From a phage, in NCBI GenBank assembly GCA_025611195.1, contig GCA_025611195.1_4718.2: 64,000 nt of DNA. One strand, 5' to 3'. Within the stretch, counting starts at the first letter, position 1. Each line of letters starts with the position of its first letter. The notes under the pieces are model-generated. The model searched no databases. It was given only the letters and a program-made list of their open reading frames with translations, and was not told the DNA's origin. The position numbers were made by a program, and so were the translations under genes. Below are positions 4,736 through 59,960 of this stretch, in pieces.

Positions 4736-4787
4736 AATAGAACCTCATGATAATAGATAATAGAAATGATAGATAGTACAACAAATT

Positions 4788-5729: not shown

Positions 5730-5751
5730 GTTAACCTCAATACGAACATAA

Positions 5752-5783
5752 CCCTCCTCCGACCCATCAGGGAAGGAGGAGGG
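5752..5783 (-). terminator. CCCTCCTCC / GGAGGAGGG hairpin between minus genes
   Basis: 9-bp inverted repeat 5752-5760 / 5775-5783 just downstream of the stop at 5793. Confidence 0.5.
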
Positions 5784-5792
5784 AATATGCTG

Positions 5793-6107
5793 TTATTTTG
5801 TTTTAGGTGTTGAACCGTTCTTCTTGAAGTCGGATTCGTATTTCACGTTAGAATCGAGAACCTCACGAACGGTTTTATCCGTACAGCCACGAGCGATGTA
5901 TGCATTAAGATCATCACGTAATTTACGCATTGTTGTTTTATCCGCATCAGAAATATCTGACTTGGTAAGACGGAATGCAATTGCGTCACGGATTTTATTC
6001 AGCGTCGCTGGGTTAATACGCTGTTCTGCAAATACCGCTTTGATGAACTTATCGCTATCTTTCGAAGCGACGGCAGCATCAAGAATCTCAATATGCTTTT
6101 CAGACAT
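5793..6107 (-). CDS. hypothetical protein (104 aa)
   Basis: ORF track; basic/acidic mixed small protein. Confidence 0.45.
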   Translation of the reverse strand: MSEKHIEILDAAVASKDSDKFIKAVFAEQRINPATLNKIRDAIAFRLTKSDISDADKTTMRKLRDDLNAYIARGCTDKTVREVLDSNVKYESDFKKNGSTPKTK

Positions 6108-13943: not shown

Positions 13944-13968
13944 TCACGTAAGTAATATAGCCGTGAAA
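13944..13968 (-). promoter_or_regulatory. candidate phage early promoter (minus-strand TTTCACGGCTATATTACTTACGTGA)
   Basis: One of four near-identical 25-nt motifs with invariant TATATTAC, 50-70 nt upstream of the minus-strand ATG at 13895. Confidence 0.5.
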
Positions 13969-23319: not shown

Positions 23320-23433
23320 AATCTCATTTCCTCTTATACGTTCGGATAGATGACATGTTGGATATACGTTGCCTTTGCATATATTGCTTTATTTCCGTCA
23401 GAAATAACGGAAAATAAAAACAACGACATAGTT

Positions 23434-23463
23434 CCCTCCCACCTCCACATGGGAGAGGGAGGG
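23434..23463 (-). terminator. CCCTCCC / GGGAGGG hairpin
   Basis: 7-bp stem (extendable with mismatches), downstream of the stop at 23477. Confidence 0.5.
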
Positions 23464-23476
23464 CTATTCGTGTTTA

Positions 23477-31889: not shown

Positions 31890-31976
31890 AACAACCTCTT
31901 TTCGCGGTTCCCTGTTAAAACGTCTTCGGCGACGTCTACCACAAAGGTAACATTTATGTCGCCTCTATGACTTTGT

Positions 31977-32001
31977 TCATAGAGGTAATATAAGCGTGAA
32001 T
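31977..32001 (-). promoter_or_regulatory. candidate phage early promoter (minus-strand ATTCACGCTTATATTACCTCTATGA)
   Basis: Fourth instance of the TATATTAC-core motif, upstream of the minus gene starting at 31889. Confidence 0.45.
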
Positions 32002-32131
32002 AATTTTGGATTCCGGCTGAGTTATCGCTCAGCATGCAAGGCATCCCGCCGAAGCGAGACACCTTGCACTAACGGAAGATATTCGCGTTACCTTCTGAGT
32101 CTTCGATTCAGAATGCGAAGCTGAAGCATTA

Positions 32132-37254: not shown

Positions 37255-37279
37255 TCACTTAAGTAATATAGCCGTGAAA
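37255..37279 (-). promoter_or_regulatory. candidate phage early promoter (minus-strand TTTCACGGCTATATTACTTAAGTGA)
   Basis: Near-identical to the motif at 13944..13968; 90-110 nt upstream of the minus ATG at 37168. Confidence 0.5.
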
Positions 37280-39064: not shown

Positions 39065-39740
39065 TCGCTACCTCATACCCGCAGCTTTACCTGCAGCTTC
39101 CGGTGTTACCGGAATGTCCAGAATACATCTTATCCATATTCCAAATGGAACGTAGGACTTCCGCGCTGGATCTCGCTTGAGACCACGTATTCGTTGAACG
39201 TTCTCCTGAACGGAGCTTCGCTGCTGATCGAACATTGTCGTGTACGGTAGGCATCCCCGAAGGGATTGTCATTGAAGCCGCGTACATCCGCTACCTTGTT
39301 TCTACCTTATCGGTTCCTCTTACGAGGCGTAGCGGCCTTAGCCCTTCCCAGCAATTCACGGAATCCAAGCTCTTCCTTTCGGAAGGCAGGGCCTATGATT
39401 AAGCATCCCCGTCGCTGTTATCGACTATATCTTCATCCTCGTTGCGAGGAGTCTCCCGTTTGGGTCTGTGTTTAACAGAGCCTACTCTACTCAACATCGC
39501 GTCTTTCGATAGTCTGTGAGCACACATCTTAACGAACATTCGTGGATTCCTAAACAGGTGAACGTTCTTGTTGAGATGCTTCGCTGCGGATTATTCCCGT
39601 CCTACCTCTTTTACCGTACCCAGTTCATTACGCTGGCCCTCATCTATGTCACCATGATGAGTTGGTGTGTAGTCCGATTACAGAAACTTCCCGTCAATTA
39701 GAGAGTTTTAACTACGTTCCTGTTACCAGAAACCAGATCC
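39065..39740 (-). ncRNA. group I intron-like element B (approximate boundaries)
   Basis: Minus strand carries Q-like AATCCGCAGCGAAG (39592-39579), R-like GCTCACAGACTATCG (39521-39507) and S-like GAAGATATAGTCG (39433-39423); no long ORF. Confidence 0.5.
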
Positions 39741-39814
39741 CGACGGTATCAATAAATCAACGTAAGTTATTGATTTAATTGAAAAACTGAAATCTGCATT
39801 ATCTAAATCTTCAG

Positions 39815-40185
39815 TATGGTTCGCTACTCCATACCCGTACCTCATGTACTGCTTACGTCTTTCACGTAAGGATAGACTATATCTTTCACCCTCAGCATTA
39901 TCTGGTCGGGGCTCCCATTTCGGCGGTCAGATGACCGGTGGTTTCCCACGCCGCTTGGCCCTAACGCCCGTAAGCGATAGTCGTTGAGCACATCTCCGTT
40001 CTGGAGACTTCGCTGCGGATTCCCCAATCCTTGCCGCTTTTACCGTACCTGAATGATTAGTTCAGCCCCACGCTCTGTTCCCAGGCATGGTTGGTGGACG
40101 AGGCTCTAAGTAGGTTCCCGCATTAGAGAGTTCCTCGTAACAACATTTCTGCGTTACTGGGCCTAACGACCCTTTCAAGATCATC
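39815..40185 (-). ncRNA. group I intron-like element A (approximate boundaries)
   Basis: Minus strand carries P/Q-like GGTAAAAGCGGCAAGG...AATCCGCAGCGAAG (40044-40008), R-like GCTCAACGACTATCG (39987-39975), S-like AAAGATATAGTC (39885-39875) and a P9-like hairpin CTTACG-TGAAAGA-CGTAAG. Confidence 0.55.
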
Positions 40186-41411
40186 ACGCTTAACCCGATG
40201 GTGTTATCCTGCGGATCGCGTTTAACCTTGGTGATTTCAAGACATTGGTTACTGCTTCGGTCAAGTGATGGGTTTCGAACAAAGCCGCACACAATCCCAT
40301 CGAACGGTGTATCAGCAATAAGCTCATCATGCAGCTCGCTCATCATCGGATGATAATTACGGACATGTTCCGCAACGAACGCACGTGCTGCTCTCGGTGA
40401 ATAACCGCGATGGAATAACTTGGATTGGATATGTTCTTTATTGGTTAAAGTAAATGGTGCGTATGGGAAATGCAGATGATAATAACGATGGTTCGCTGTT
40501 ATCGAACTGATTACGGTACGCGTGGTGAATGGATGTAATGTACCTAATATGTTTTTACGCGTGATACCTTTCTTCTTACCGATGAACTCATCGAAAATCG
40601 CCGCGTGGTATTGCAGCAGCTTCAATTGCACTTTCGCCATCCAGTTTTCTTTCTTTCTGGCGCTCAAAGGTGTTGTTGGATGATAGATACTATTCAGTGT
40701 ACCAATAGCATCGATCGCACCTTCCATTTTGCTATCTGCATAACGGCCGGTCGGTGTATTTTCGATAACGAACATCATGGCCGCAGGAAAGCTGATATAC
40801 TGACTGAAGAACTTATCACGATGGATACGGATGAATTCTCGTAGCGTGTCAACTTTCTCTGTGTTCTTCGGTCCACGTAATGTGGGTCCTTTATACAAGA
40901 TCTCCATGATGCGATCGAAGTTCTGTATAAAGCTATTTACACCACGCCGTATCCCGAATACATCAAATTGCTGCTCCAGATAGTTCTTGAGTTCAATGGG
41001 TCGTTTTACATTTGGACGGTAACTGGCATCAATGAGCCACGTCATCGTTTCGAAGCTTTTGATATTCAACTCGCTTGCCAGCACGAGATGGACCAACGGG
41101 TTAATGAACGCATCGATTCCTTCAGGGACACGCGCCCAGACCGTCGAACGAATCTCCTGTTCTGCTGGGTAGGTTACAACCGTTTTACAGTTTGGACACA
41201 CCGTGCCGAGCAACTCACCGCGATTGTAGAAACCACAACCACATTGTGGCGTGATATCCAACGTATCGCTGGAGTAAACACGGGTGATAAAACTGTTTAA
41301 TTTCTTCTTCTCTTCGACGACTTTTGTATCGTAATCGTTCAACAAAATCGGCGTAAAGGGAAGTTCTGCGAGCTGTCTATCGAAACTCACGATATCGAGC
41401 ATGATGGCCAT
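40062..41411 (-). CDS. RNA polymerase beta-prime subunit, N-terminal portion; 3' end of this ORF probably reads into intron A
   Basis: Zn-binding CGCGFYNRGELLGTVCPNC; GKKKGITRKNILGTLHPFTTRTVIS aligns with beta-prime [24 protein letters not shown]; ORF ends before any DFDGD catalytic loop. Confidence 0.6.
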   Translation of the reverse strand: MAIMLDIVSFDRQLAELPFTPILLNDYDTKVVEEKKKLNSFITRVYSSDTLDITPQCGCGFYNRGELLGTVCPNCKTVVTYPAEQEIRSTVWARVPEGIDAFINPLVHLVLASELNIKSFETMTWLIDASYRPNVKRPIELKNYLEQQFDVFGIRRGVNSFIQNFDRIMEILYKGPTLRGPKNTEKVDTLREFIRIHRDKFFSQYISFPAAMMFVIENTPTGRYADSKMEGAIDAIGTLNSIYHPTTPLSARKKENWMAKVQLKLLQYHAAIFDEFIGKKKGITRKNILGTLHPFTTRTVISSITANHRYYHLHFPYAPFTLTNKEHIQSKLFHRGYSPRAARAFVAEHVRNYHPMMSELHDELIADTPFDGIVCGFVRNPSLDRSSNQCLEITKVKRDPQDNTIGLSVMILKGSLGPVTQKCCYEELSNAGTYLEPRPPTMPGNRAWG

Positions 41412-43463: not shown

Positions 43464-43488
43464 TCACCTAGGTAATATAACCCTGAAA
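43464..43488 (-). promoter_or_regulatory. candidate phage early promoter (minus-strand TTTCAGGGTTATATTACCTAGGTGA)
   Basis: TATATTAC-core motif 65-90 nt upstream of the minus ATG at 43399. Confidence 0.5.
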
Positions 43489-43653
43489 TTTTTTTCAATA
43501 TTGGTGTAACCACATTGAACGATATAAACCCCTAGGCGAACGCTGCCGAGAAGCAACATTCTTTCTACATATAATCAGGATATGTCTGTAAACTTTTACT
43601 TCTCTTATTGAGAGTAATGTCATATCCGTTTACCATCTTCTTACGGAGTTCGT

Positions 43654-44814: not shown

Positions 44815-46968
44815 TTATTCTGCAGTTTCTTGCTTCGGTAAATAACTTGCTGCGATGTCTTGGGCCAACAATGTATTGTTTTTATTCGAGATGAAAATAC
44901 CGTAACTTTCCATTAACGCATAATACGAACGAACGAGCGTAGAGATCAGTCGACGAATATCCATACCTTGAATAAAGATATCAGGAAGCCCGGAGGCTTC
45001 GATCACTGGTAATGGTATCGTTAAGTTGCTTATCGTTTTCTTATCGTTACGTACAATCCAATCACGGAAACGTTGTTGTAACCCTTTATCCTCCCAGGAA
45101 TCAATCCAATCATTAAGAAGCGTTTTGTTCTTCGTCGCCAACGGTACACGAACCCCAACATAAGGTGGTTCGGGGCAATGGCCGTACGATTGAGCAAACA
45201 CTTCTTCCCACATATCGTAAGACTGTTTCGTTACCGCAACATGTGGTTTCACTTTAACACGTGTTAAGAAATCCGGATCGCCACGTTTCATTGATTCAAC
45301 GATTTCGTTCTCTAGTGAGATAATATCGTCAAGAACCAATCGAATGCTGATCTTCTCATTACGTAACAGCTTATCCATTATACCACACATCATGCGTTCA
45401 ACACGTTGGACGATTATTTTTGGTGCTGACGCATCACGCATAACAGGACCTTTCAACTCCAGCTTCGGTGGGTTGATGGGAACCCCTTCACGCATGGTCA
45501 TGTATCCGTAATAGTTTTTACCCATCGAGGTTAACGACAGAATTAAGAACATATATTCGTTCTTCATTTCCATTACGTACATATGCTCTTTCGCTACACC
45601 GATATTACCAGAACACATCGCCATCAGATGAACCGTAATCTGCGTAACCAGATAGATAAGCGTGTTTGCTAAGCGCGTCGAAATCGGATTGATCTCCATA
45701 TTTCCAAATCGCCACTGAACCCACTCCTGGCAGGTAAACACCGTCGAGTCGGTATCAGACAACACACCCACTTCACGGATTGCTGACGGAAAAGCATAAA
45801 CACCAGCCGGTTGGTTCTCGGTACGCCAGAACGCCTTAATTAAATCAGCGTAGCTTTGGATGCGTTGCAACATTAATTTTGTCGTTGCTGCAGTAAGACG
45901 ATAACCAAGTTCATTTCCTTTTTCTAGCGCTACGTAAATCGCTTCCCCGTTCAAGAACTCCGTGCATTGTGCTGTAATCCAAGCGACCGTGTTGTTATCC
46001 ATGGAAGCAATAATGGCTTTAGCCTCTTCCATCGTTTCAACAGGCTCGGATGCCAGTTCACATAACGAGTCAAGAAAATCTCGAACAAATTCAGGATTAA
46101 GCTCACGTAACGAGTACAGGTTATTGCTGTACATGTAGCAGGCGCGTTCCAACGGCGTTAAACCGGTAATTAGCTCCCGGATGGTCAGTTCTTTCTCTGG
46201 GTCGAAAATATATCGATGCAAGCATTTCGATACGTTAGCCCAAACCTCTTCCGGTGTAGGGTAATGCAGTTTGTATTTTACCATTACCTGCTCAATGGCT
46301 TTACGATCGCTGTTACGGACAATGCTCACAATGTTTTCAATTGCGATATCGCAATCGTAATAATGGAAATTACCCGCAAGGAAGCGTTCGTTGTTCGCAT
46401 TGGCTGAACCTGAAGCACAGCGACATGTTGTCGTTAAACTTGGATGCGCGATCGGATTATAAAAAGGGTTAAACTTGGATGCCTGTGTTCCTGATAAACT
46501 GTTGTTGTCTAACTTGGTGTTGGTTTGTCGTTTATCGTGTAACTCAGCTTCGTCTTTACGTCCATGGGCTTGCGCTATCGACATTTGTTTCTTTTGTTTC
46601 TTACGCAACTTACCGTTTTCAACCGCAAAGTCGCTTAGCACACTGGAACGTGTTTCACGCGGATAACAGTTAGCCCATACCGGCGTGATAATTAAATTAT
46701 TTTCTTTAATATCATTGAAGTATTGGCTGAACTTGATGACTTCTTTTTCTCGGTTTCCTTCAGTACGCTGTGTTAGTACAAGGCAGTCGGGATCAACCAT
46801 CCCGTATTTTCCACCAGGACTAACCGTATCAAGAACAAACTGCAACGCTTCCCGCTGAGAAATCCCACGCATGCGCATTAAGAACAGGGTATAATCCTGT
46901 ACCGCTTCTTTGGTCATATCCAACGTACGACCATATCCGTTTTCATCGTAAAAGAACGGATTTTCCAT
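44815..46968 (-). CDS. hypothetical protein (717 aa)
   Basis: ORF track; contains an SDTDS segment but no other polymerase motifs could be confirmed by eye. Confidence 0.55.
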   Translation of the reverse strand: MENPFFYDENGYGRTLDMTKEAVQDYTLFLMRMRGISQREALQFVLDTVSPGGKYGMVDPDCLVLTQRTEGNREKEVIKFSQYFNDIKENNLIITPVWANCYPRETRSSVLSDFAVENGKLRKKQKKQMSIAQAHGRKDEAELHDKRQTNTKLDNNSLSGTQASKFNPFYNPIAHPSLTTTCRCASGSANANNERFLAGNFHYYDCDIAIENIVSIVRNSDRKAIEQVMVKYKLHYPTPEEVWANVSKCLHRYIFDPEKELTIRELITGLTPLERACYMYSNNLYSLRELNPEFVRDFLDSLCELASEPVETMEEAKAIIASMDNNTVAWITAQCTEFLNGEAIYVALEKGNELGYRLTAATTKLMLQRIQSYADLIKAFWRTENQPAGVYAFPSAIREVGVLSDTDSTVFTCQEWVQWRFGNMEINPISTRLANTLIYLVTQITVHLMAMCSGNIGVAKEHMYVMEMKNEYMFLILSLTSMGKNYYGYMTMREGVPINPPKLELKGPVMRDASAPKIIVQRVERMMCGIMDKLLRNEKISIRLVLDDIISLENEIVESMKRGDPDFLTRVKVKPHVAVTKQSYDMWEEVFAQSYGHCPEPPYVGVRVPLATKNKTLLNDWIDSWEDKGLQQRFRDWIVRNDKKTISNLTIPLPVIEASGLPDIFIQGMDIRRLISTLVRSYYALMESYGIFISNKNNTLLAQDIAASYLPKQETAE

Positions 46969-47042
46969 AAATCCTCCAAAAGTTATTTAGTCTGTCTACA
47001 TCATCTCGTATATCTGTTAAAAAAGAAGGACGGCATAAAAAG

Positions 47043-47070
47043 AACCGATCCAGCCGAAGCCAGATCGGTT
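47043..47070 (-). terminator. AACCGATC / GATCGGTT hairpin followed by U-tract on minus strand
   Basis: 8-bp stem, 12-nt loop; minus-strand downstream sequence CTTTTTATGCC...CTTCTTTTTT; lies about 195 nt beyond the stop at 47265. Confidence 0.45.
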
Positions 47071-47264
47071 TAAAGGATAATAACTGACAGAAAGATATCG
47101 ATGATGTTCGTGAAACAAGATCTTCTCTCGTGTACAATGATGCCAGATCAGAGGGAGGTTGTAACACGAGAGGTGGTTCGCCAAAGAAGGAATAAAAACA
47201 CGAACCTATCTTATTTCACTGATGGCACTAACCACTCAAAATATATAGTACTGTATGTAAAAGT

Positions 47265-47678
47265 TTACTGATTAATCAAGTCGTTAGCAACAATCTTGGT
47301 GTAACCTGCCTGATTAAGAATTTGATTAATTTTTGTCATGTCGGTTGCATCCTCGATAACGATGCTGGGTTTATAGATCAGCGTCTTGGTAACAACGATT
47401 GTACTCTCCTTAATCCAAGGAATCCCTAAAATTACATACTCGCCATCAGCTGTGATGACCTCGACGTAATTGTACTTCGTCGGATCGTTCGGTACACTCG
47501 ACGGGAGCCGGGAATAAATCTGTTGGTGAATGGCGTCCACATCACGGCCGTTACGTACAGCGGTACGATAATTGTACACCGCGCTAATTTCTACTCCGTT
47601 GAAGTTAACCCCAAGTTCTGGGGCGTACACATCAAAACTCACAACAGAGCCAATCTTTTCTAAATCAGAAGCTGGCAT
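47265..47678 (-). CDS. hypothetical protein (137 aa)
   Basis: ORF track. Confidence 0.45.
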   Translation of the reverse strand: MPASDLEKIGSVVSFDVYAPELGVNFNGVEISAVYNYRTAVRNGRDVDAIHQQIYSRLPSSVPNDPTKYNYVEVITADGEYVILGIPWIKESTIVVTKTLIYKPSIVIEDATDMTKINQILNQAGYTKIVANDLINQ

Positions 47679-56305: not shown

Positions 56306-56560
56306 GATAGAAATCCTTAGTATGTTTGATATGTTGTTTAATTGACATATTAAGTTTAAAAGAGGTTATGTTTTACGTATTGTTAATAACGTATTCTTAT
56401 CTCTATTAAGCTATGTTCTATCTAAAGATAGTAAACAGATATAATGCTCCCCACCTCCCCATTCTCCCAAGTAATACTGGCCTACCGGCCCTCTCCTTTT
56501 TAAGGGAGAGAGTAAGCATTCAGTATTGCTCAAATGAATAAGCAAAACAGTATAAACTTA

Positions 56561-56584
56561 CCGTCTCGAGACAACTCGAGACGG
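56561..56584. terminator. perfect 10-bp palindrome hairpin CCGTCTCGAG-ACAA-CTCGAGACGG with T-rich flanks on both strands
   Basis: Located 27 nt after the minus-strand stop at 56611. Confidence 0.6.
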
Positions 56585-56610
56585 CGTAGTGTCTGTTTAT
56601 CTCTTTTATG

Positions 56611-56949
56611 CTAACAACCTATTTCTGCATAAACCTTTAACGATTCGAATACATCTCCCTTCTTTATCATCGTCTTGTACAAACGTGATTGAGCAATGAT
56701 CTTTATCCATTGTTGCGGATCGTGTAAATTCACATTTTCAAAACGGGGTGGGGTATTATCTCCGTCGAGTCGGATATACCCTAAGAGCAATCCTTCATGG
56801 TGTCCTCGACGGATTTCGATATGTGGTTTGAGGGAGGTATGATTGTCTGGTGGATACCAGCTTACGGTGTAATAATGGTTTCCTGAAACAACGATTTCGT
56901 GAACGGTTTTTGTTTCATCGTCAATGATCGCGTTTACGCTGGGGATCAT
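56611..56949 (-). CDS. hypothetical protein (about 112 aa)
   Basis: Start moved to ATG at 56949 (MIPSVNA), overlapping the upstream stop (TAATG); the track ORF extends 100 nt into the upstream gene. Confidence 0.4.
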   Translation of the reverse strand: MIPSVNAIIDDETKTVHEIVVSGNHYYTVSWYPPDNHTSLKPHIEIRRGHHEGLLLGYIRLDGDNTPPRFENVNLHDPQQWIKIIAQSRLYKTMIKKGDVFESLKVYAEIGC

Positions 56950-57548: not shown

Positions 57549-58096
57549 CTTGTAATCCTTAATTTACCTGAATGAATTATCGTTGATGGGTCCACGACGC
57601 GACCGTATTTCGCATTACGTAGTACACGATGCCCAAAGAAGTCAGCGGTTTCCAAAACAACTGTATAACAACCAAGCTGATGTTGGTGTCCCCAAAACCG
57701 TTCAATGGGAATCCAGCATGGCGTCATGCCTTTGTGTCGCCAATCCGTAACACAGCCGAATTCAGCAAACTGTTCAGTAAACCACTCATCAATGTCGGTA
57801 TCCGTAAAGAGAAACACGTGGTTTTTAACCAGATAAGCGAACCCTGGATAAAAAAGCTGAGGGTCATCTGGGTCACGTAGATAAACACGAAGTTTGTCTA
57901 GTGTGCCCTCGATAACGATTGTATCGGGTAATCCTGGTGGTGTGAACCGAAGTTGGAAGTTATCCTCGTTTGCCGAGGCGTTAACCAAATACCCCAATTG
58001 AAGGGGTCGATGCAATTCGAAAAGGTTGAACGTTAATGCATATTCGATATACTCTAATCCTATATTCATGTCTGACCTATGTGGTATGGATGACAA
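57545..58096 (-). CDS. hypothetical protein (start TTG at 58096 or ATG at 58069)
   Basis: ORF track; GGAAGG upstream of the TTG. Confidence 0.45.
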   Translation of the reverse strand: MSSIPHRSDMNIGLEYIEYALTFNLFELHRPLQLGYLVNASANEDNFQLRFTPPGLPDTIVIEGTLDKLRVYLRDPDDPQLFYPGFAYLVKNHVFLFTDTDIDEWFTEQFAEFGCVTDWRHKGMTPCWIPIERFWGHQHQLGCYTVVLETADFFGHRVLRNAKYGRVVDPSTIIHSGKLRITR

Positions 58097-58207
58097 CGCT
58101 TTGCCTTCCGCGAGTGTAATCAGGAAGGTAATGTAGGTTTATTTTAATCTCCATTTCGCGATGATATGACAGTCTTTATTACGTTTACCATCTGAGGGAG
58201 CATGCTC

Positions 58208-59446
58208 ATGTCTTCTATTTTACAGGTGTTTAATGCGCATGCGGAAGGCATTGACATCGACGAGTATTTTGTTAATCAGGTTATCCGTTACGCGACACGC
58301 TTCCGCACGCAAGACCAAGAACACATGCGTTTTTTCGGTGGGGTTCTGTTAGGCGTGCAGAAAATCCGATTCACAACAAGACATAACGATATGTGGTTTT
58401 CCGACGTCTTGATGATGGATGAAGAAAGCTTACGACGCGATTTGAGTAAACTGCCCTTTTACAATACGCAGACCAACCGTGTTGCCTCAAACGCATTTAA
58501 CCTAAGTTGCTGCTGGTTGCTTTATGCGATTTTCCATAGCAAACAAATCAAAAAAGAAAAGGTTCGTGAGGCCGGGATGCTTGCTGCAATGCAAGTCCTT
58601 CATTATAAATTCATTTGCGGTCTGGTAGCGCGGCGTTATCCTTATAACGCCGATCCGGCTATCGCCATTAAGGCGTACGATGAGTTAACGCTCAAATCAG
58701 GTATCAAACGCATGAATAGCTGGAATGAGTACATTGACGAACGCTGTAATGCCATCATTGCGCGTAATAGTACACATTTCAGTCGTTGGTCAACCCTGGA
58801 ACCAGATAGTGTCGCCGAACGTTTTGTACGTGATGTGAATACCGGAATTCGTAAAGTTATCAACCGTATCACCGATACGTACTACGCGATGTACGAAGAA
58901 GGTAAGAAGATCGGCACGTCCTCTCAAACTGTAGAATTAGACGACGGCCTCGCTGTCCGCGATATTAAACGCAACGAAACCACGTATCGTCAATATCTGT
59001 TCGAAATCGCTTATGACCGAACAAGTTTCGTTAAACGTGAACTCATGGTCGTCATCCTCGACGTGCATCATACTACCAATCTCCTATCCCTTGAGCGAGC
59101 GTTAAGTTATATCAGCGCTAACGTAGAGCGGCCAACAAAAGACGGAAAGCAGGTCTCTCAGATGTTGCGGCTTGTAATGGAACATGCTATCGAGTATATC
59201 ATCTTGAATAAGGTCGATATGCGCGATCTTACGTTCTTATTCTACATGCGTAACGTGTATACGTCTAACCGTACCAGCAACCCGAAACTGTTAGAACTGC
59301 GTAAACTTGGCTCTGAAGTCATTAAGAAAGCAACCAACGCGAGAAACGACGCTGAAGCTGCAGCGACACGCACAGGTGTCTTTCTGTATATCCTGCTTCG
59401 GGTGTTTAGTCGCAACTATTACGTTCGTCGCGCGATGTCTCGCTAA
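58208..59446 (+). CDS. hypothetical protein (412 aa)
   Basis: GAGGGAG RBS 7 nt upstream of ATG at 58208 (first ATG at 58202 is too close to the RBS). Confidence 0.5.
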   Translation: MSSILQVFNAHAEGIDIDEYFVNQVIRYATRFRTQDQEHMRFFGGVLLGVQKIRFTTRHNDMWFSDVLMMDEESLRRDLSKLPFYNTQTNRVASNAFNLSCCWLLYAIFHSKQIKKEKVREAGMLAAMQVLHYKFICGLVARRYPYNADPAIAIKAYDELTLKSGIKRMNSWNEYIDERCNAIIARNSTHFSRWSTLEPDSVAERFVRDVNTGIRKVINRITDTYYAMYEEGKKIGTSSQTVELDDGLAVRDIKRNETTYRQYLFEIAYDRTSFVKRELMVVILDVHHTTNLLSLERALSYISANVERPTKDGKQVSQMLRLVMEHAIEYIILNKVDMRDLTFLFYMRNVYTSNRTSNPKLLELRKLGSEVIKKATNARNDAEAAATRTGVFLYILLRVFSRNYYVRRAMSR

Positions 59447-59598
59447 CAATGTAACAGTAAAACTTTACTGATGTTGGTTATTATTTGAAGCATAGGGCTT
59501 CACCCAGGAGTACCATCCCTGTAAGTCGTTTGTCCTCTCCTGGTTAACTGTCGTTCTCTCACAGTGCTCGACAGACCAAAAATGCTCAAGCCTCATAG

Positions 59599-59627
59599 CC
59601 TCCTCTGGGAATGGAACCCAGAGGAGG
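59599..59627. terminator. 11-bp hairpin CCTCCTCTGGG-AATGGAA-CCCAGAGGAGG between convergent genes
   Basis: Perfect inverted repeat, 13 nt downstream of the minus stop 59640. Confidence 0.55.
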
Positions 59628-59639
59628 ACTATGTTTGCT

Positions 59640-59960
59640 TTAAAATTCAATGCGACCCTTAGTTGTAAACAATACACCTCTTTGCCAACAGAAAAGATCC
59701 TCCGATTGAGCGCAAACACGAATACCCGCATCGAATAGATGTTTTGTTCTGGCGCTTAAACAATCTGGATCTTCTACATACAACAGAAGACGTTGGCATT
59801 TATTTTGAATGCGCTCGACAAGGATGTTCTTATCGCTTAAAATAAAATGCGCGTTATCTGTTAAGTTATCGTCGGTTTCCAGCTGCCCGACAAGTTTGAT
59901 TAAAATACGTAATTGCTCAAGTGTGTCATGATCAAATGAATCGCCCATGGCGTACCTCAA
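59640..59960 (-). CDS. hypothetical protein (106 aa)
   Basis: ORF track. Confidence 0.4.
   Translation of the reverse strand: MRYAMGDSFDHDTLEQLRILIKLVGQLETDDNLTDNAHFILSDKNILVERIQNKCQRLLLYVEDPDCLSARTKHLFDAGIRVCAQSEDLFCWQRGVLFTTKGRIEF

Follow-up and report, generated by a model that had tools for sequence, protein, structure and literature searches.

Why should a phage keep, with hardly a change, 296 nt that separate two functionally linked replication genes and that appear to encode no protein? The locus in question belongs to a 64,000-nt stretch of phage DNA (assembly GCA_025611195.1, contig GCA_025611195.1_4718.2), referred to below as the window. The two genes that border it are the following.

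47265..47678, minus strand: SH3DP gene, homologue of Goslar gp243 (Pfam PF20287, E = 1.3e-36; Goslar annotation).
44815..46968, minus strand: polymerase gene, 'Divergent Family B DNA polymerase' (Pfam PF20286, E = 4.5e-204), homologue of Goslar gp244 and phiKZ gp50.

The SH3DP gene ends with a TAA at 47267-47265 and the polymerase gene starts with an ATG at 46968, and the gap, read on the minus strand, thus spans 46969-47264, confirming the 296-bp untranslated stretch between stop and start that the first-pass annotation had described. PF20287 is described as an 'SH3 fold domain associated with phage DNA polymerases'. The SH3DP gene closes an operon of about eight genes, and downstream, beyond the polymerase gene, the Goslar annotation places a divergently transcribed gene and the nuclear shell protein chimallin. 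Between 44500 and 48500 the window is 95.9% identical to the Escherichia phage vB_EcoM_Goslar, a nucleus-forming jumbo phage of the Chimalliviridae and the E. coli model of nucleus-forming phages. The only non-coding RNAs annotated in Goslar are two introns.

The gap is under strong purifying selection across its full length. Four of its 296 positions (1.4%) differ from Goslar, while about 38 differences would be expected at the rate of third codon positions; in coding sequence, the window diverges from Goslar by 12.7% at third positions and by 2.2% at first and second positions. Few intergenic regions of the window are comparably conserved, one of them being that upstream of chimallin. No copies of the gap sequence were found elsewhere in the window, where 9-mer recurrences are at chance level, and blastn returned no match among 5,426 E. 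coli genomes. Natural variation was assessed in nine natural Goslar-lineage haplotypes, eight of them from metagenome and virus collections.

Transcripts entering the gap from the SH3DP operon meet an intrinsic terminator.

47030..47070, minus strand: intrinsic terminator with tail; hairpin 47070-47043, U-tract to 47036, tail TTATGCCGT at 47038-47030.

The stem-loop, AACCGAUCUGGC-UUCG-GCUGGAUCGGUU, has 12 pairs and an energy of -17.8 kcal/mol, and CUUUUUAU comes after it. The gene is thus followed, on its transcribed strand, by a stem-loop and then a U-tract, as in an intrinsic terminator, with transcript ends that are predicted. On the plus strand no U-tract follows the hairpin. The first-pass annotation had placed a terminator about 195 nt past the stop, and the hairpin indeed begins 194 nt after the stop codon. 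Its hairpin and U-tract (47043..47070, minus strand) are also real, as the Goslar annotation marks the same site as a terminator and the orthologous gaps of two relatives, L006 and L007, carry a hairpin of different sequence at the equivalent place. Matches to a loose terminator pattern are no more numerous in the region than chance would give (6 found, 5.6 expected); the one at 47070-47036 is by far the strongest of these matches and is present as a single copy in the window. Since no terminator lies between the SH3DP stop codon and 47070, operon transcripts must contain this stretch, and the sequence up to the terminator is certainly present at the 3' end of the upstream mRNA as well.

The phiKZ-like phages share a conserved terminator motif, BCCYCCCCHWWDGGGRRGGBYTTATKYYGT, and the tail TTTATGCCGT (47039-47030) matches its YTTATKYYGT portion (PMC10914365). 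The likeness lies in a hairpin followed by TTAT-G-CC-GT, TTATGCCGT being an exact fit to TTATKYYGT, whereas the stem here is AACCGAUCUGGC/GCUGGAUCGGUU and not CCYCCCC/GGGRRGG. Stems of the CCCTCCC type occur in other terminators of the window. Tails like TTATGCCGT are also found in L007, in the IMG/VR phages L037-L045 and in Ea35-70, a conservation across genera that is explained by its membership of the known chimallivirus terminator signature (PMC10914365). Being a terminator tail, TTATGCCGT calls for caution against taking its internal TATG as a promoter.

At the other end, the gap opens with caG-TAA-ACTTTTAC, making a palindrome that overlaps the stop codon and heads a promoter-like motif.

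47257..47268, minus strand: palindrome GTAAACTTTTAC, candidate upstream promoter element at about -31 to -20, overlapping the TAA stop.
47238..47256, minus strand: 19-nt spacer, variable ATACAGTAC and then invariant AT-rich TATATATTTT.
47237, minus strand: predicted transcription start, the G of TTTG-AG, placed by the motif class T(T/A)TG(A/T).

From its sequence we infer that the motif at 47268-47237 is a promoter of the non-virion RNA polymerase (nvRNAP) type, with the palindrome possibly bound by a dimeric factor. None of the nine haplotypes differs in the palindrome, in the AT-rich stretch or in the first 10 bases of the predicted transcript; within the motif, variation is limited to spacer positions 47252-47254. 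The complete Goslar genome holds 8 exact sites of GTAANNNTTTAC, against 0.95 in shuffles; 7 of the 8 are intergenic in a genome that is 92% coding, the eighth being the gap site, and they precede the genes of the major head, the tail sheath, several virion proteins, gp144 and chimallin/gp245. The relaxed form TT(T/A)AC-N-(A/T)3-TG(A/T) adds further intergenic Goslar sites, for example at ChmC gp176, with the G located 26-35 nt before the start codon. The spacing of N18-19 recurs as well, at six Goslar sites and at four sites in L006 and L007, and positions 47268-47236 fit the palindrome class that we define here, GTAARNNTTTAC, N18-19 ending AT-rich, and G(A/T). The motif was missed in the first-pass annotation. 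The predicted start at 47237 corresponds to Goslar 176,738 (NC_048170), and an RNA-seq time course of Goslar has been published (10.1101/2023.09.20.558163).

In phiKZ, the nvRNAP promoter consensus is T(-3)ATG(+1), and every single substitution of TATG strongly lowered transcription in vitro (PMC4666361). The middle promoters of this phage have a weak AT-rich -24 element, and its nvRNAP promoters are stated to be without a clear upstream consensus (PMC4666361, PMC7598289). The gap motif resembles them in the initiating G after T/A residues and in a T-rich element ending in TTTAC at about -24 to -20. It differs in the start tetramer (47240-47237), which is TTTG and not T(-3)A(-2)T(-1)G(+1), and in its well-defined 12-bp palindrome, which is undescribed in PMC4666361 and PMC7598289. 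The tetramer is TTTG also in L006, ATTG in L007 and TATG in a distant IMG/VR family. Two other promoter types were considered and rejected: the early-promoter motif GGCTATATTACTTANGTGA occurs three times in the window but never in the gap, the motif of which is a degenerate relative only, and sigma-70 matches are at chance level and on the wrong strand. Phages of the phiKZ type are independent of the host RNA polymerase (PMC7598289).

Between predicted start and terminator, the sequence is predicted to fold into the following parts.

47036..47237, minus strand: predicted ncRNA of about 200 nt (MFE -64.8 kcal/mol), also the 3' end of the operon transcript.
47222..47235, minus strand: P0, small 5' hairpin GUGGU/GCCAU (RNAalifold consensus and covariance-model structure).
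47110..47219, minus strand: three-way-junction domain, P1 closing P2 and P3 (consensus fold of the haplotypes).
47219-47208 with 47121-47110, minus strand: P1, 12-bp stem (consensus fold).
47206-47200 with 47181-47175, minus strand: P2 hairpin (consensus fold).
47172-47160 with 47136-47125, minus strand: P3 hairpin (consensus fold).
47071..47109, minus strand: single-stranded linker of 39 nt, with GAACAUCAUCGAUAUCUUUC invariant in all haplotypes.

The 206-nt stretch that begins shortly before the predicted start and takes in the terminator scores z = -5.3 against dinucleotide shuffles, and the body minus the terminator scores -3.5 in sense and -2.4 in antisense. In a minus-strand scan with 200-nt windows, the segment 47101-47300, in which the terminator is not included, scores z = -4.8 and comes seventh among 639 segments, in the top 1%. 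The three-way junction displays two invariant CU-rich loops, UUAUUCCUUCUUUG and ACCUCCCUCUGAUCUGGCAUCAU, and the L026 haplotype has a 19-nt insertion in the linker, 3' of GAACAUCAUCGAUAUCUUUC.

The haplotypes vary in a manner congruent with this fold. Changes affect 11 of 105 paired columns versus 22 of 97 unpaired ones (Fisher p = 0.02), and pairing is kept by 9 of the 10 stem substitutions that could be evaluated (binomial p = 0.011, null 0.5). Seven of the pairing-preserving substitutions do so via G·U, equal to A·C on the complementary strand, and because they pair in this way the fold resides on the minus-strand RNA. One true compensatory change is present, G-C to A-U in P2, and four further changes in P2 are wobble-compatible. 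Strict covariation is weak, with this one compensatory pair and a shuffle control that matches the observed value in 100 of 500 cases; the structural support is therefore the pattern of tolerated changes rather than double changes. Taken with the selection on the gap and its want of coding potential, the minus-strand structure and the stem-preserving substitutions support the first-pass reading of the stretch as a small RNA or a structured 3' UTR.

The invariant CU-rich loops (UUCCUUCUUU, ACCUCCCUC) resemble anti-Shine-Dalgarno sequence, a lead by resemblance only. L006 carries CCUCCUUA, which is identical to the 3' end of 16S rRNA. Searches for described RNA families gave no match in Rfam at gathering score or at permissive thresholds (best 18.5 bits against a cutoff of 46.9), and ARAGORN detected no tRNA in the gap. 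Thus, no described aptamer or leader family in Rfam identifies the gap as a riboswitch or other curated cis-regulatory leader.

The same organization recurs in relatives. In L006 and L007 the polymerase is 64% and 58% identical and the gap 303 and 312 nt long, respectively. Both have a promoter-like motif at the SH3DP stop codon (GTAAGAGTTTAC-N18-G and GTAAAGCTTTAC-N18-G), a terminator that differs from that of the window in sequence but not in place, and the same T-rich tail, and their gaps are equally structured (z = -5.2 in L006, -4.9 in L007). MAFFT yielded no alignment of their RNA bodies with that of the window. A covariance model of the Goslar-lineage RNA matches only itself in the window and Goslar, and with filters off it found nothing in L006, L007 or five other phages. 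Searches of metagenome, genome and viral collections for more relatives at 50-90% polymerase identity gave none beyond L006 and L007; the scans otherwise yielded more Goslar-lineage copies and distant phages.

Further afield, the IMG/VR phages L037-L048, with a polymerase that is 36-37% identical, present the succession of motif, body and terminator, and in L038-L048 the palindrome is found at the corresponding place after the SH3DP stop. In this family GTAAAGTTTTAC or GTAAACTTTTAC is followed by N21 ending in the canonical TATG, then by a body of about 105 nt with three hairpins that is conserved within the family, and by a hairpin and TTTTATGCCGTC-TTTCTTTTTT, with the polymerase ATG about 65 nt further. 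Ahead of the polymerase gene, phiKZ and PhiPA3 have a first terminator, TTTAC-N18-G (TATG or AATG), about 60 nt, a second hairpin and a T-rich tract. The equivalent place in 201phi2-1 is occupied by an early promoter, an unannotated 107-codon ORF and a second terminator, and Ea35-70 and Viktualia have a terminator and the T-rich element only. Thus, a terminator and then a T-rich tract before the polymerase gene are common to all chimalliviruses examined, and in several lineages a putative promoter is situated upstream of this pre-polymerase terminator. On these comparisons the layout is old, and the RNA body is not conserved between lineages.

How, then, is the gap best explained? We give a probability of about 0.5 to the reading that it yields a discrete, structured ncRNA of about 200 nt that is itself under selection. 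An nvRNAP-type promoter overlapping the SH3DP stop, made up of the palindrome, the AT-rich stretch and the G at 47237, would drive transcription, which would stop at the intrinsic terminator 47070-47036 and so release a discrete RNA. That RNA would consist of the 5' hairpin, the three-way junction with its two invariant CU-rich loops, the single-stranded linker and the terminator hairpin. The shared terminator would end the upstream operon as well, the same sequence doubling as an mRNA 3' end. The RNA would be the selected product, as a regulatory or protein-binding small RNA presumably acting in trans. In favor of such an RNA, the candidate promoter motif is conserved independently of the RNA body. 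On the other hand, a function in trans must tolerate complete turnover of the body between lineages, the start tetramer is TTTG where phiKZ requires TATG (PMC4666361), and the compensatory pair is a single one. A target search also gave no convincing candidate: compared with all Goslar translation-initiation regions, three invariant unpaired segments performed no better than shuffled segments, with the exception of an 11-nt complement, UACAACCUCCC versus GGGAGGUUGUA at about Goslar 177,700, which falls inside a coding region.

The alternative that fares best, although on balance we consider it unlikely, is that the motif is the promoter of the polymerase gene and the 200 nt its 5' leader, with premature and possibly conditional termination. 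The terminator would then set or regulate read-through into the polymerase gene, the short RNA would be a by-product, and the control would need to operate without ribosomes, given that the phage forms a nucleus. The arrangement of promoter, hairpin and polymerase gene is widespread, since a TTTAC-N18-G(TATG)-like motif and a hairpin precede the polymerase in phiKZ, PhiPA3 and the IMG/VR family, and the terminators in phiKZ 5' UTRs are bimodal, giving a short RNA or full read-through, in 34 of 42 cases (PMC10914365). Moreover, the sequence of the terminator's 5' arm recurs in loop 2 (CUGAUCUGGC), which can pair with the 3' arm (-15.0 versus -17.4 kcal/mol; 1.7% of shuffled bodies pair equally well), and both natural variants of loop 2 preserve this pairing. 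An equivalent anti-terminator pairing is however absent from L006 and L007, the body lacks the conservation between lineages that a sensor domain should show, and the lack of a riboswitch or leader match in Rfam also speaks against a leader.

The region next to the polymerase gene bears on the same issue.

46969..47029, minus strand: polymerase-proximal region, with T-rich CCTTCTTTTTTAAC at 47029-47016 and a possible start G at 46999.
46977-46972, minus strand: Shine-Dalgarno GGAGGA.

The T-rich element is kept in L006, L007, 201phi2-1, phiKZ, Ea35-70 and the IMG/VR family, and TTATGCCGT-CCTTCTTTTTTAAC is conserved across genera, its first part being the chimallivirus terminator signature (PMC10914365). 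In Ea35-70, 201phi2-1 and Viktualia this element directly follows the terminator without any leader, and the polymerase gene can therefore be expressed from downstream of the hairpin. A polymerase promoter after the terminator, as proposed in the first-pass annotation, is plausible, the T-rich element being a putative part of it and the candidate start G at 46999 a weak match.

We regard it as improbable that the gap is a plain structured 3' UTR of the SH3DP operon, in which an internal promoter is missing and the fold stabilizes the mRNA or is processed. Operon transcripts do include the stretch, the TTTG departs from the TATG needed in phiKZ (PMC4666361), and RNAs processed from phage 3' UTRs are known, such as ncRNA1 and ncRNA2 of PAK_P3 (PMC10914365). 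Yet the palindrome, the AT-rich stretch and the G are kept at the exact spot in phages where the bodies cannot be aligned, and the promoter-like motif also precedes ordinary genes, 26-35 nt from the ATG. A stability element would, in addition, leave the selection on nearly every position of 200 nt unexplained. The presence of the promoter-like motif at the stop codon makes a discrete transcript likelier than a plain 3' UTR.

A bolder proposal, a long shot in our estimation, treats promoter, RNA and terminator as one module that forms an ancient, ribosome-free control device of nucleus-forming phages, or else lets the CU-rich loops act in trans on cytoplasmic translation. In the former version, a dimeric phage factor on GTAAANNTTTAC would drive the leader RNA, and the RNA fold (e.g. 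loop 2 versus the terminator 5' arm) or a bound protein would decide on polymerase transcription. In the latter version, loops resembling the anti-Shine-Dalgarno would exert the effect on translation. If either were true, it would represent the first defined function of a jumbo-phage ncRNA and the first defined upstream promoter element of a non-virion RNA polymerase.

That the gap acts as DNA, whether in packaging, in protein binding or as an origin of transcription-primed replication, appears highly improbable. With replication genes next to it, a palindrome, inverted repeats and a T-rich tract, it is reminiscent of oriF and oriG of T4. However, the seven stem substitutions noted above fit only G·U pairing on a minus-strand RNA, the sense strand folds better than the antisense strand, and Goslar's cumulative GC skew does not inflect near 176.5 kb. 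Least credible of all, to the point of being negligible, is an unannotated small protein gene, for although sense frames of 17, 33 and 55 codons with GTG or TTG starts are open in the gap, the body has no ATG, these frames have no Shine-Dalgarno and the longer ones continue through the terminator, haplotype L005 has two non-synonymous changes within the 17-codon frame, and the orthologous gaps of L006 and L007 have no peptide in common with this one, all congruent with the first-pass claim that the gap holds no credible ORF.

The preferred reading, a discrete ncRNA, can be compared with two known kinds of RNA. In bacteria, type I 3'-UTR-derived small RNAs such as DapZ and MicL have their promoter at or just after the end of the coding sequence and share the terminator of the upstream mRNA; they are host RNAs, dependent on Hfq, with defined seed regions and targets. 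The gap has a promoter-like motif at the end of the upstream coding sequence and a terminator shared with the upstream mRNA in the same manner. In contrast, neither a seed nor a target was found here, and the polymerase would be phage-encoded.

A closer parallel is offered by the same virus family. ONT-cappable-seq mapped 17 short RNAs in phiKZ and 11 in 201phi2-1, derived from 5' UTRs and intergenic regions, made by premature termination and running from a start to a terminator less than 250 nt downstream, and two of those of phiKZ were confirmed by Northern blot (PMC10914365, PMC11512511). As a class these short ncRNAs are defined by start-to-termination distances below 250 nt, a position upstream of a gene and no ORF of at least 10 codons with a Shine-Dalgarno; from the predicted start at 47237 to the predicted terminator end at about 47036, the gap RNA measures 201 nt and has no Shine-Dalgarno ORF. 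The likeness extends to a phage promoter, putative in the gap, an ORF-less body below 250 nt and a family-type terminator before a gene, and to sequence conservation within the genus. The ends of the phiKZ and 201phi2-1 RNAs are mapped, whereas those of the gap RNA are predictions; the gap RNA is also longer (about 200 nt), and its promoter would overlap the upstream stop codon.

By this analogy, the gap is most likely a further example of the short terminated RNAs of chimalliviruses, a kind already mapped in related phages. It stands out by strong constraint, which few non-coding stretches of the window match, by its occurrence in a model phage, and by a tie to a palindromic element common to distant family members, in which the layout recurs. 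The palindrome may contribute to a definition of the middle and late promoters of nucleus-forming jumbo phages, which are poorly understood, and the predicted gap RNA is a concrete candidate with which to address the role of the numerous short terminated RNAs found in jumbo phages.

The 12-bp palindrome GTAA(A/G)NNTTTAC, one copy of which overlaps the SH3DP stop codon ahead of the predicted ~200-nt RNA, is enriched in Goslar, with 8 exact sites against 0.95 expected, and lies there almost exclusively between genes, those downstream encoding the major head protein, tail sheath and chimallin, among others. Often, a T(T/A)TG start-like motif is found 18-19 nt downstream of the palindrome. The palindrome may represent an upstream element or factor-binding site of middle/late promoters; a comparable upstream palindromic element is described in neither of the phiKZ promoter papers PMC4666361 and PMC7598289. 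The sites are as follows.

Window 43587-43600: palindrome
Window 47257-47268: palindrome
Window 56550-56561 (-): palindrome variant GTAAGTTTATAC
Window 59456-59469 (+): palindrome GTAAAACTTTAC, directly 3' of the stop codon of gene 58202-59446 (+)
Goslar 15706, 16758, 45746, 81200, 134255, 173087, 176758, 188961 and 197141: palindromes

A second palindrome-body-terminator unit, of the same design as that at 47036-47268, was observed at 59456-59645 (+). Here GTAAAACTTTAC is followed by N18 and a G at 59487, after which ~159 nt lack an ORF and are well folded relative to shuffled sequence (z = -4.6), and the 3' end is formed by the following element.

59598-59630: bidirectional terminator

As the unit faces a convergent gap, a role as 5' leader of a gene is ruled out. 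The variant GTAAGTTTATAC, at 56561-56550 (-), similarly precedes N18 and a G at 56531, within a 643-nt stretch (56306-56948, minus strand) where ORF calling with ATG starts only returned no genes; part of the matching Goslar region is covered by annotated gp227 (186115-186468). With z = -5.8, 56501-56700 (-) is among the most structured regions in the window.

A separate motif, GG(C/T)TATATTAC(T/C)TANGTGA, is present in three copies in the window against 0.04 expected by chance; it is the TATATTAC promoter of phiKZ type for early (virion polymerase) transcription.

13944-13962 (-): early promoter
37255-37273 (-): early promoter
43464-43482 (-): early promoter

One of the three is located upstream of chimallin, and degenerate copies occur in the gaps 31890-32131 and 58070-58201. 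An early-promoter motif was also recovered in 201phi2-1 (L009 2061-2384, plus strand), between gp81 and the polymerase gp83, together with a 107-codon plus-strand ORF and a terminator. The annotated gp82 occupies the same stretch on the strand opposite this ORF and has possibly been called in error.

Directly 3' of many terminator hairpins, (C/T)TATG(T/C/A) was detected.

Window 5730-5895, 23320-23476 and 59447-59639: hairpin, then (C/T)TATG(T/C/A)
201phi2-1 (L009), L010 and L037-L045 (the last among distant IMG/VR phages): the same

Since this tail matches the phiKZ terminator motif, a post-hairpin TATG is not automatically a late promoter.

Elsewhere, 39159-40189 (-) holds two, perhaps three, group-I-intron-like elements in tandem, all below the Rfam gathering score.

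39415-39781 (-): group-I-intron-like element, 46.9 bits
39853-40189 (-): group-I-intron-like element, 29.6 bits
39159-39363 (-): possible third element, 16.7 bits

Goslar gp186 (168217-169281), an HNH endonuclease gene, has no counterpart in the window, and ~368 nt at 39803-40170 are absent from Goslar.

Returning to the predicted RNA, its invariant hairpin loops (47182-47199 and 47137-47159) are CU-rich, and in sequence UUCCUUCUUU and ACCUCCCUC resemble anti-Shine-Dalgarno elements; the counterpart in sister lineage L006 (about 4762-4775) carries CCUCCUUA, identical to the 16S rRNA 3' end. Loop 2 (47137-47159, minus strand) includes GAUCUGGC, the exact sequence that the terminator (47043-47070) has in its 5' arm, and could form 10 pairs with the terminator 3' arm (-15.0 kcal/mol), equalled by 1.7% of shuffled bodies. 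The 5' segment UGCCAUCAG is in turn able to pair with loop 2. Sought in L006 and L007 and found in neither of these sister lineages, this three-element arrangement of UGCCAUCAG, loop 2 and terminator 3' arm resembles an attenuator.
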